Shown here: positions 24,933 through 38,044 of the stretch, piece after piece
Position numbering within the stretch: the first letter of the stretch is position 1
How the letters are laid out: each line of letters begins with the position of its first letter
Source of the DNA: a bacterium
GTDB taxonomy: Bacteria; BMS3Abin14
Length of the DNA stretch: 64,000 nucleotides
Reading direction: 5' to 3'
NCBI GenBank assembly: GCA_020350725.1
Contig: CP070719.1
Coordinates: forward strand, 1,418,096-1,482,095
The notes under the pieces: generated by a model
Seen by the model: only the letters and a program-made list of their open reading frames with translations
Databases searched by the model: none
Told to the model about the DNA's origin: nothing
Translations under genes and position numbers: made by a program

Positions 24933-25772
24933 ATGGGTGCATTAGTCAAATTATTGGTCGCAGTCCACCTTCTGGGCTGGGTTCTGGCAGGTGGGTCAGA
25001 GAAGCCGTTATACGGGAGTGCCGGTCTGGCGCCCTCGGGCGCGGCCTGCGCTCTGCCCGGGTCGGTGGACGAAAAAGCGGAGGAACCGATGAAAACCGAG
25101 ATCACAGGGAACGTCTCGCCCGTTCCGTTTCCCATCGACGTGAGGGTGCCGAAGGAAATCCGGACGGCCACATTTGCCCTGGGGTGATTCTGGGGGCCGG
25201 ACTCCCGGTTCGGGAGTATGAGAGGAGTCGTCCGGACCCGGGTGGGCTACGCCGGAGGGCGTTCGGCCGATCCCACCTATCACAACCTGGGCGACCATGC
25301 GGAGACCGTCCAGATAGAATACGACCCGAGCATCCTCACCTACGATGACCTGCTGAGCGTGTTCTTCTCCTCCCACCGCCCGACGGTCCCCTCCTACTCG
25401 CCGCAGTACCGGTCGGTCATCTTCTACCATGACGAGGAACAGAGGAGGCTGGCCCAGGATGCCAAGGAGAGGCTGGAAAGGAAGGCGAAGGGCCAGATCT
25501 ACACCGACATCGAAGCCTTCACGGGTTTCACGCTGGCCGAGGATTACCATCAGAAGTATGGCCTGCGGCACAACGCCGCCGTGATGCGGGAATTCGAGGC
25601 CGCATACCCCGATCCCATGGATTTCATCAACTCCACCGCCGCTGCCCGGGTCAACGGGTACCTGTACGGCAACGGGAGCCTGTTGCAGCTGAAGGAGGAA
25701 TTGCCCGAGCTGGGTCTCTCCGAATCCTCCGCCAGGGTGCTGGAGTCTTTCGTGGGAAAGTACAGCCGGTAG
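24933..25772 (+). CDS. msrA: selenocysteine-containing peptide-methionine (S)-S-oxide reductase with N-terminal signal-like sequence; in-frame UGA at 25185-25187
   Basis: Track ORFs 24858..25187 and 25218..25772 are in the same frame. The junction reads ATFALG-UGA-FWGPDS, the GCFW catalytic motif; TRVGYAGG, HAETVQIEYDP, QYRSVIF and AEDYHQKY follow; a hairpin lies just downstream. Confidence 0.9.
25201..25217 (+). promoter_or_regulatory. candidate bacterial SECIS element for the msrA UGA
   Basis: ACTCCCG-GTT-CGGGAGT 7-bp stem; the loop G is 21 nt after the UGA. Confidence 0.65.
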
Positions 25773-36548: not shown

Positions 36549-36769
36549 AATATTCGGGTAGCCTTCTGTCCGGATCGGGTGCACAGGCATCCAGGACAAA
36601 AACAGTATGCCAATGACGAGGATGGAAAACAACAGGCGATATCCCCGTCCTTTCTCCATCTTGGATTTAAGCAATAGGCGATGATATAATTCACTCGAGG
36701 AACGAGTCGATAACAAAGACCCGGGATTTGCATGAATTTCCGGCAAGTCTTCACAAAAGGGGGTAAATC

Positions 36770-37969
36770 ATGAGATCGAGACATCTCAGTTTCCTTGTCC
36801 TTTTCTGCTGCGCGGTCCTCCTGTCCTCTCCGCTGCCGGCAGCTGCTGAAAAGGTGGATTTCCAACCGGTTCGGACTCCTTCTATGGGGCCGGAAAACGC
36901 CAAGGTCACGGTGTACGAGATCGCGGACTTCATGTGACCATTCTGCAAGGAGGTCGGTCCGGCCTTCAAAAGGCTCAAGGAAGAGTACAGTGACAGGGTC
37001 AGGTTCGTCTATGTGCCCTACATGAGACAGTATTCGGGTTATTCGCGTGACACGGCTCTGGCATCCTATGCCGCCTGGGATCAGGGCAAATTCTGGGAGA
37101 TGCACGACCTCCTCTATGAGAACGCCCCTGACCTCGAAAGGGAGGTGCTGGACAGCCTGGCCTTGAAGCTGGGGCTGGACATGGACAGATTCCGGAAAGC
37201 CATGGACGAGAAGGCCCATCTCGACGAACTCCAGGGCAATCTGGACAGGGTCCACGAGCTGGACATCTGGAGCACCCCGACGGTGATCATCAACGGGGTC
37301 ATGATCAAGGGTGTTCAGCCCTACGAGCGCTACAGGGAACTCATCGAGGAAGCCCTGGCCTCCTCGAGCAGATCGGGGCCCCTCCACCGGATACAGGATG
37401 CAGCCCTGAGGATCCTGAGCCCTGCCGAGGTTTTCGCCGAAACGGGCGAATTCGGCCGCGGCCGGGTGCCGCTTTGGGTGCAGGCTCCCCGGCTGAAACC
37501 GGTCAACGATCTCAAGGTGGGCGATGCCGCTCCCGACTTCACCCTGCCGAATGCTCAGGGGGGTGAGATCACACTGAGCGCATTCAAGGGGAGCAAGAAT
37601 GTCCTCATCTCCTTCCTGCCGGCGGCCTTCACTCCTACCTGAAGCGGTCAGCTTTCCGCTTACGAGGAGCTCAAACCTCGTTTCGCGGAACTGAACACTC
37701 AGGTTCTGAGTGTGCTGGAAGACAACCTCCCGACGCTGCAGGCCTGGAGCCAGGGGTTGAACGCCTCCTTTCCCATCCTGAGTGATTTCTGGCCCCACGG
37801 TGAGGTCGCACTGCTCTACGATGTCCTCCGGTCCGAAGGGATCGCCGAGAGGGCCCTCTTCATCGTGGACAAGGAGGGGGTCATCCGCTTCATAGACATA
37901 CACGACATCAACGAGGACCCGGGCATGAACGCCATTCTCAAAACCCTGGAGGAGATCGAGGGAAAGTGA
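36770..37969 (+). CDS. exported DsbA-like/AhpE-like peroxiredoxin fusion with two in-frame UGA (Sec) codons at 36935-36937 and 37640-37642
   Basis: One frame from ATG 36770 (RBS AAGGGGG) to TGA 37969: signal peptide, GPENAKVTVYEIADFM-U-PFC, GKFWEMHD, STPTVIING, then KVGDAAPDFTL...FLPAAFTPT-U-SGQL, SDFWPHGEVA, ERALFIVDKEG. Both UGAs sit at catalytic Cys positions. Confidence 0.88.
36951..36965 (+). promoter_or_regulatory. candidate SECIS element for the first UGA of the fusion
   Basis: AGGTCG-GTC-CGGCCT stem with one G-U pair; the loop G is 20 nt after the UGA, like the msrA hairpin. Confidence 0.55.
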
Positions 37970-38005: not shown

Positions 38006-38044
38006 ACGGCCCACCGGTTCCGGGGGAAAGGTGGGCCGTTTGTG
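38006..38044 (+). terminator. probable terminator hairpin after the DsbA-Prx fusion
   Basis: 10-bp perfect stem ACGGCCCACC/GGTGGGCCGT followed by a short T tract; a second hairpin GGGTCTC/GAGACCC lies at 37970-37988. Confidence 0.5.

Follow-up and report, generated by a model that had tools for sequence, protein, structure and literature searches.

The prokaryotic selenoproteins listed in a May 2026 review comprise 119 families and subfamilies, including the selenocysteine (Sec)-containing peroxiredoxins Prx (TxxU), the DsbA-like proteins of form 1 (UxxC) and the DsbG-like proteins; none of those listed joins a DsbA-like UxxC to a Prx TxxU (PMC13188914). The gene described here apparently encodes this combination. 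It is located at 36770-37969 on the forward strand of a 64,000-nucleotide stretch of contig CP070719.1 (positions 1,418,096 to 1,482,095; assembly GCA_020350725.1, GTDB lineage BMS3Abin14), referred to in the following as the window. Judged from comparative sequence analysis, it is almost certainly a real selenoprotein gene with two Sec codons. The evidence as a whole is best explained by an exported DsbA-like domain fused to an AhpE-type peroxiredoxin, the two probably working as a Sec291/Sec56/Cys59 peroxidase cycle. The domain architecture and the Sec pattern are new, the two component selenoprotein families are known.

Relation to described selenoproteins and peroxiredoxin systems

Bacterial proteins with two or three Sec residues are known from other fusions, e.g., arsenite methyltransferase/AhpD, HUGP/GUXX-star and rhodanese/DsbD-like TsoB (PMC13188914). 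They share with the present gene the layout of one open reading frame (ORF) with at least two Sec codons, for which more than one Sec insertion sequence (SECIS) is needed within the ORF. Since a separate SECIS within the coding region is required for each UGA, multi-Sec bacterial proteins are uncommon. No double selenoprotein of the DsbA/peroxiredoxin type was described in the Global Ocean Sampling survey of selenoprotein fusions (PMC2398784), none was reported in the literature searched as full text, and there is no NCBIfam model for the fusion.

The peroxiredoxin half resembles the Sec-peroxiredoxin family Prx (TxxU; PMC13188914) and AhpE (1xvw, 1xxu, 4x0x, 5id2) with respect to the PxxxTxxU/C motif, the conserved Arg, the lack of a resolving Cys and the fold. 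It differs from both in being joined to a presumed recycling domain, in the second Sec codon on the same mRNA and in its predicted export, AhpE being cytoplasmic. Recycling of AhpE is accomplished by mycoredoxin-1/mycothiol. A peroxiredoxin joined to its own thiol-disulfide recycling domain is also found in the peroxiredoxin-glutaredoxin hybrids; these are, however, cytoplasmic, glutathione-linked and Cys-based with the glutaredoxin domain at the C-terminus, whereas the present fusion is predicted to be exported and Sec-based and carries a DsbA-like recycling domain at its N-terminus.

The DsbA-like half corresponds to the DsbA-like form 1 (UxxC, PF01323) and DsbG-like (NF041057) selenoproteins (PMC13188914) in its predicted export, thioredoxin fold with helical insertion, UxxC motif and Thr-cisPro; unlike them, it is followed by a C-terminal peroxiredoxin domain. 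A functional pairing of the same general kind was demonstrated in Caulobacter, where the exported peroxiredoxin PprX is reduced by ScsB via TlpA (PMC3322552). There, too, an exported peroxiredoxin is paired with an exported CxxC protein of thioredoxin fold. In contrast to the Caulobacter pathway, the fusion is one polypeptide with Sec as both nucleophiles, the domain joined to the peroxiredoxin resembles DsbA and not TlpA, its peroxiredoxin domain is AhpE-like whereas PprX is of the peroxiredoxin-Q type (PMC3322552), and no ScsB, DsbD or CcdA was found in the (gapped) assembly.

Gene structure and conservation of the two in-frame TGA codons

According to translation, the gene constitutes one frame of 399 codons containing only two internal stops, both TGA, at codons 56 and 291. 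This agrees with the original prediction, an earlier reading of the same DNA that had proposed a double-Sec DsbA-peroxiredoxin fusion. The coding features are as follows:

36770..37969 (+), coding sequence with two Sec codons and TGA stop; same layout in 11 full-length orthologues
36935-36937 (+), Sec56 codon (UGA 1); codon 56, ADFM-U-PFC
37640-37642 (+), Sec291 codon (UGA 2); codon 291, LPAAFTPT-U-SGQ, i.e., PxxxTxxU
37967-37969 (+), terminal stop TGA; from translation

Orthologues were searched for in 60 related genomes. Full-length copies were found in 11 genomes from eight genera of the same family (59–74 % identity), each with exactly two in-frame TGAs, and a twelfth family copy that ends at a contig edge retains the second TGA. 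Both TGAs occupy identical alignment columns throughout (ADFM-U-PFCKE and AAFTP[TV]-U-[ST]GQ): UGA 1 is TGA in 11/11 family orthologues as well as in loci L039 and L041, and UGA 2 in 12/12 family copies as well as in L039, L041 and L122. Two further Sec/Sec copies are present in the metagenome-assembled genome (MAG) records ‘Proteobacteria bacterium SZUA-204’ and ‘bacterium PFL40’. The real stop codon of the orthologues differs by genome, being TGA, TAG or TAA. Since both TGAs are shared across independent assemblies (at least 14), assembly error, which would have overturned the original prediction, is ruled out. Genus g5 of the family is devoid of the fusion, but in one genome a remnant (L031, G011:C27:55071-55262) of 64 residues persists that is 75 % identical to the fusion C-terminus and contains a TAA, suggesting secondary loss.

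The ratio of nonsynonymous to synonymous substitution rates (dN/dS) was determined according to Nei-Gojobori for all orthologue pairs and is given as median per segment. It amounts to 0.16 before U56, 0.12 from U56 to residue 195, 0.36 in the linker, 0.16 in the peroxiredoxin domain before U291 and 0.09 after U291. These low values throughout indicate purifying selection as protein in every segment, on both sides of each TGA and including the parts downstream of them.

The machinery for Sec incorporation is complete: (i) a tRNA-Sec (74 bits, anticodon TCA; ARAGORN), (ii) selB (367 bits) with adjoining selA (600 bits), and (iii) selD, which itself contains an in-frame TGA (at C1:1315748) and thus encodes a selenoprotein, are all present in the assembly. 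The genome also encodes a DsbA-like paralogue with a single Sec (SDYQ-U-PYC, G000:C1:969059-969559), 30 % identical to the DsbA domain of the fusion, whose TGA is kept in several relatives. A second Sec-peroxiredoxin (INTPA-U-KST, G000:C1:2610064-2610417) is 34 % identical to the fusion peroxiredoxin domain.

As anticipated in the original prediction for standard gene callers, public gene calls split the fusion, yielding ‘middle fragments’ of ~210–225 aa that end with ...LPAAFTPV (database search); annotation pipelines present the gene as fragments or as ‘thioredoxin domain-containing protein’, and one public 399-aa call reads W at both TGAs. Such calls would suit a locus that does not encode a selenoprotein at all, i.e., a decaying pseudogene, a product of assembly errors, three small genes or a gene of a variant code with UGA as Trp or Gly. 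The probability of this is regarded as very close to nil, considering that more than a dozen independent assemblies share both TGAs at 59–74 % protein identity, that dN/dS is ~0.1 downstream of each TGA, that homologues show Cys at both sites and never Trp or Gly, that TGA is also the real stop here where orthologues use TAG or TAA, and that the Sec machinery is complete. Variant genetic code, pseudogene and assembly error were rejected on account of the conserved TGAs, the low dN/dS, the Cys homologues and the use of TGA as stop. A dedicated family model would mend the annotation in at least about 15 genomes.

Predicted SECIS elements

Each of the two TGAs is followed by a predicted hairpin at a similar distance:

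36949..36967 (+), SECIS 1; 8-bp stem GGAGGUCG/CGGCCUUC with GUC loop, beginning 11 nt 3' of UGA 1
37654..37690 (+), SECIS 2; two-tier hairpin UUCCGC..ACGAGG[AGCUCAAA]CCUCGU...GCGGAA, beginning 11 nt 3' of UGA 2

They are two separate, unrelated in-ORF hairpins and represent predicted SECIS elements. In SECIS 1, opening of the G-C closing pair yields the apex GGUCC, similar to the apical loop (GGUC) in the Escherichia coli fdhF SECIS. Across 11 sequences, 97.7 % of the cells are paired, as compared to 25–62 % when the partner column is slid, and two positions display compensatory double changes. The latter alter the protein, one genus having V-S-L-T and another A-G-P-A instead of V-G-P-T; pairing is thus upheld at the expense of the protein.

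SECIS 2 has a folding energy of -21.8 kcal/mol (z = -2.97), and a hairpin is predicted 12–15 nt 3' of UGA 2 in 12/12 orthologues (z against shuffles from -0.5 to -5.0). Covariation is evident in its lower stem, where one position is occupied by C-G, G-C or A-U, and for the hand-defined lower stem 0/500 shuffles match the observed covariation or pairing. RNAalifold gave a poor consensus after UGA 2, because the register of the upper stem differs between genera and the lower stem of genus g4 is shifted by 2 nt. No Rfam match was obtained in the window at gathering thresholds; the hairpins were judged by comparative folding instead.

The hairpins are missing where the codon specifies Cys. L122, with Cys at site 1, has no SECIS 1 hairpin and keeps SECIS 2, and the Cys/Cys fusion L040 displays weak folds at both sites (-4.2 and -4.8 kcal/mol). 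At other UGA sites of the genome (selD, the DsbA-like paralogue and the second Sec-peroxiredoxin) stems begin at a similar distance from the UGA. The SECIS that the original prediction demanded after each UGA is therefore matched by predicted, conserved or covarying hairpins that lie in the ORF and within the distance of about 11–37 nt expected of a bacterial SECIS. Two unrelated SECIS hairpins are accordingly kept in one ORF across the family, some of its amino acids being evidently dictated by RNA pairing.

Domains and catalytic residues

The deduced protein is composed of four parts:

36770..36847 (+), putative signal peptide (Sec-type, referring to the export route), residues 1-26; n-h-c layout by eye, predicted cut after AAA
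36875..37348 (+), DsbA-like (Thioredoxin_4/DSBA) domain, residues 36-193; Pfam E 7e-23 and 6e-15
37364..37504 (+), variable interdomain linker, residues 199-245; from the alignment and a pLDDT (predicted local distance difference test) <50 in the AlphaFold2 model
37505..37954 (+), AhpE-like one-‘Cys’ peroxiredoxin domain, residues 246-395; Pfam AhpC-TSA/Redoxin at 250-389, E 6e-35

The N-terminus reads MRSRH / LSFLVLFCCAVLLS / SPLPAAA|E, and n-region, h-region and A-x-A site are visible by eye in all full-length orthologues. A lipobox Cys is missing from most of them. The mature protein contains U56, C59 and U291 as its sole Cys/Sec residues.

In the DsbA-like domain, U56 is part of the active site U56-P-F-C59, and T169, P170 and T171 of the cis-Pro loop WSTPT are invariant. 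Together with the Pfam scores for DSBA and Thioredoxin_4, which exceed their cut-offs, this bears out the assignment of UGA 56 to the CxxC position of a DsbA/DsbG-like fold with an STP loop. The nearest solved structures, retrieved by sequence and fold search, are Bacillus subtilis BdbD (3eu3) and ScsC (6nen, 4gxz), with a TM-score of ~0.8. The fusion scores below the cut-off of NCBIfam NF041057 (Rcas_1661 family, ‘DsbG-like selenoprotein’; 79.8 vs. 190 bits) and therefore falls outside that equivalog.

The peroxiredoxin domain is nearest to Mycobacterium tuberculosis AhpE by sequence as well as by fold (TM-score ~0.7–0.77 on the target); its score with NCBIfam NF040737 (PrxU) is 50.2 bits at a cut-off of 270. 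In the 13 aligned sequences, P284, T288, U291 and R361 do not vary. The FTGIC motif of M. tuberculosis AhpE ends with the peroxidatic Cys45, opposite which U291 is placed in the alignment, while R361 is placed opposite the conserved Arg (E 1e-28). Both Pfam and the AhpE alignment thus place UGA 291 at the peroxidatic position of an AhpE-like peroxiredoxin, as originally proposed, and the further statement that this domain has no other Cys holds for 12/12 family orthologues, i.e., a resolving Cys is lacking throughout.

No single solved chain spans both domains according to the fold search. The AlphaFold2 model has a pLDDT of 72.8 overall, ~85–95 over most of the DsbA-like domain and <50 in the linker, and displays the helical insertion of the DsbA-like domain as helices at 90-163.

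Cysteine-containing relatives and neighbouring partner genes

Homologues with Cys in place of Sec, which the original prediction had called for, were found for both sites. At site 1, Cys is found in L122, P0089, P0086, P0098, P0243 and L040. Two proteins from the database, P0023 and P0089, have an N-terminal signal peptide, contain C-P-F-C and end at ...AAFTPV. L122, the DNA encoding P0023, reads on in frame through the TGA to ...TLEEIEGK, and its neighbourhood (MazG/fusion/DUF1844) is the same as in the window; on these two grounds it represents a syntenic Cys/Sec orthologue. Distant full-length Cys/Cys fusions are P0086, P0098, P0243 and L040, the latter belonging to a MAG of Candidatus Sumerlaeota. 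Taken together, the forms Cys/Cys, Cys/Sec and Sec/Sec could mark steps on a path to a Sec-to-Sec relay. In a search of 1.84 billion representatives (50 % clustering), the top 150 matches include only about four clusters with the fusion architecture (P0098, P0243, P0089, P0175).

Stand-alone exported peroxiredoxins homologous to this domain number 77 (47–56 % identical), and the names of their records are for the most part Desulfobacterota, Syntrophales or Thermodesulfovibrionia. Cys occupies the U291 column in 77/77. In 57 of the 69 loci with enough upstream sequence, the gene directly upstream on the same strand encodes an exported CP[YHF]C protein of ~190 aa with one such motif (EIFSMYCPYCQKEAP), assigned by Pfam to AhpC-TSA/Redoxin, i.e., TlpA-like. 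Some of these peroxiredoxin/TlpA-like pairs follow genes for a Fur-family regulator and rubrerythrin. In the neighbourhoods examined, no DsbA-like gene adjoins the stand-alone peroxiredoxins. In some loci (L072, L073, L077) two exported peroxiredoxin paralogues are located on either side of the TlpA-like gene, and L072 contains in addition a third peroxiredoxin-like match, whose catalytic column is occupied by a stop.

By analogy of the Rosetta-stone type, the adjacent exported CPxC gene in 57/69 loci supports a relay from peroxiredoxin to thioredoxin fold. The fusion would then hard-wire the pairing for which relatives use two neighbouring genes, with a partner domain that is DsbA-like and not TlpA-like.

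Linker and origin of the fusion

Following an amphipathic stretch, the linker contains the invariant pattern P218-x-x-(A/V)-x-A223 (window 37421-37438), while its remainder is fast-evolving. Since its counterpart in the alignment with stand-alone exported peroxiredoxins is their signal peptide and A-x-A site, it is probably a relic signal peptide. The gene may therefore have arisen when an exported thioredoxin-fold gene was joined to a neighbouring exported one-Cys peroxiredoxin gene, which is the probable course of events.

The same two properties, invariance of P218/A223 within a fast-evolving linker and alignment with a signal peptide plus A-x-A site, could also be taken to mean that the product is a polyprotein, cut after export at P-x-x-A-x-A to free a DsbA-like and a peroxiredoxin selenoprotein in a 1:1 ratio. 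This is considered most improbable. The stretch preceding the motif is short, amphipathic and charged (HRIQDAALRILS) rather than a membrane-spanning h-region, and an internal segment behind an already translocated domain has the wrong topology for signal peptidase I, which together render cleavage in the linker unlikely. Moreover, the Pro/Lys-rich linker of the distant Cys/Cys fusions is without the motif.

Proposed peroxidase cycle and electron supply

As a one-Cys-type peroxiredoxin without resolving Cys, the C-terminal domain cannot recycle itself. In the proposed scheme, SelB, tRNA-Sec and the two in-ORF SECIS hairpins would carry translation through both UGAs, and the resulting protein would operate in four steps: (i) the Sec291 selenolate would reduce H2O2 or an organic hydroperoxide, yielding the selenenic acid, (ii) Sec56 of the same or a partner chain would attack the Sec291 selenenic acid to form a Se-Se bond, (iii) Cys59 would resolve the Se-Se adduct, releasing Sec291 and leaving a Sec56-Cys59 selenenylsulfide, and (iv) the oxidized UxxC would hand its oxidizing equivalents to an external thiol donor. 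An intramolecular course of the Sec-to-Sec relay is favoured with moderate confidence. The fusion represents a natural compact system for asking whether a second selenol resolves a selenenic acid.

The designation as ‘self-contained’ in the original prediction was overstated, since the oxidized UxxC requires an external reductant and the usual membrane partners were not found in the assembly. This is one of several points that weigh against the proposed cycle. Specifically, no DsbD/CcdA (PF02683, PF13386), DsbB (PF02600) or VKOR (PF07884) was detected in the gapped assembly. Among the genomes of the family, only 5/16 have a CcdA-like gene, which bears no relation to the presence of the fusion. 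The partners of the unfused peroxiredoxins are TlpA/Redoxin-like and not DsbA-like, so that the neighbourhoods support the logic of the relay but not the homology of the partner. Finally, the AlphaFold2 model provides no reliable arrangement of the two domains, owing to the low pLDDT of the linker and an alignment of 13 sequences only, and is unusable for docking Sec56 to Sec291.

With respect to the missing reductant, the CcdA-like proteins of relatives have no tblastn match in the genome, while the gene neighbouring them has a 76 % identical orthologue here. CcmE and CcmF are encoded without ccdA at G000:C1:744248-746198; in a genome of the same genus (G001, L121) a CcdA-like gene directly precedes the CcmF orthologue. 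Since dsrA was not found in the genome, dissimilatory sulfite reduction is no obvious source of sulfide for reducing the fusion. The ‘one-contig’ assembly is in fact a scaffold, interrupted at 113 places by exactly 100 N each, and the absence of genes from it is therefore provisional. A second selenoprotein is encoded in the window at 24933-25772 (+), i.e., an MsrA (G-U-F-W-G, U85, TGA at 25185) with a hydrophobic export-like N-terminus; if exported, it would require an envelope reductant, as would the fusion.

The failure to detect Dsb membrane partners leaves the DsbA-like domain without its usual oxidant as well as its usual reductant and, if real, raises the alternative of a peroxide-fuelled thiol oxidase, in which the peroxiredoxin domain would oxidize the DsbA-like domain and envelope disulfides would be formed in place of DsbB/VKOR. 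The eukaryotic analogue is the oxidation of protein disulfide isomerase (PDI) by PRDX4 or GPx7/8 in the endoplasmic reticulum. Such a function would be in line with the oxidase BdbD being among the closest solved relatives and with a fused one-Cys peroxiredoxin supplying the UxxC with exactly one pair of oxidizing equivalents per peroxide. Still, it is assessed as unlikely. Thr precedes the cis-Pro, a feature typical of the reductase/isomerase-type proteins DsbC, DsbG and ScsC, whereas DsbA has Val. In addition, the stand-alone homologues with their TlpA-like partners, some clustered with the Fur-family regulator and rubrerythrin, indicate peroxide defence, and the supposed absence of the Dsb membrane partners depends on a gapped scaffold.

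In a further and likewise doubtful version, the fusion would be a free-standing thiol-redox module of the envelope requiring neither DsbB/VKOR nor DsbD/CcdA. Sec291 would be oxidized by peroxide, and the Se-Se relay would pass the oxidizing equivalents on to Sec56-Cys59, which would serve the formation of disulfides in exported proteins or the oxidation of small thiols. If true, bacterial peroxide detoxification would be coupled to oxidative protein folding, like PRDX4-PDI in the endoplasmic reticulum, and Se at both relay positions would speed both exchange steps. The fusion may illustrate how an anaerobe-type envelope copes with peroxide when the membrane partners of the classical Dsb system are missing.

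Flanking signals and unrelated DsbA-domain proteins

Two further features border the coding sequence:

36757..36763 (+), Shine-Dalgarno-like AAGGGGG; 6 nt 5' of the ATG, read from the sequence
38008..38044 (+), terminator-like hairpin GGCCCACC...GGTGGGCC, then GTTTGTG; read from the sequence

A consensus scan for promoters and terminators yielded nothing useful for the fusion gene; the hairpin at 38008..38044 was not called because its T-run is weak. As far as can be read from the sequence, 36770-37969 is likely to be one monocistronic gene, the exported product of which would have a mass of ~41 kDa after removal of the signal peptide.

The strongest database matches to the DsbA domain (P0003-P0265) are proteins of 550–1200 aa with 3–6 tandem DsbA-like domains, representing an unrelated architecture; some of them are named Myxococcota, Bradymonas or Pendulispora.

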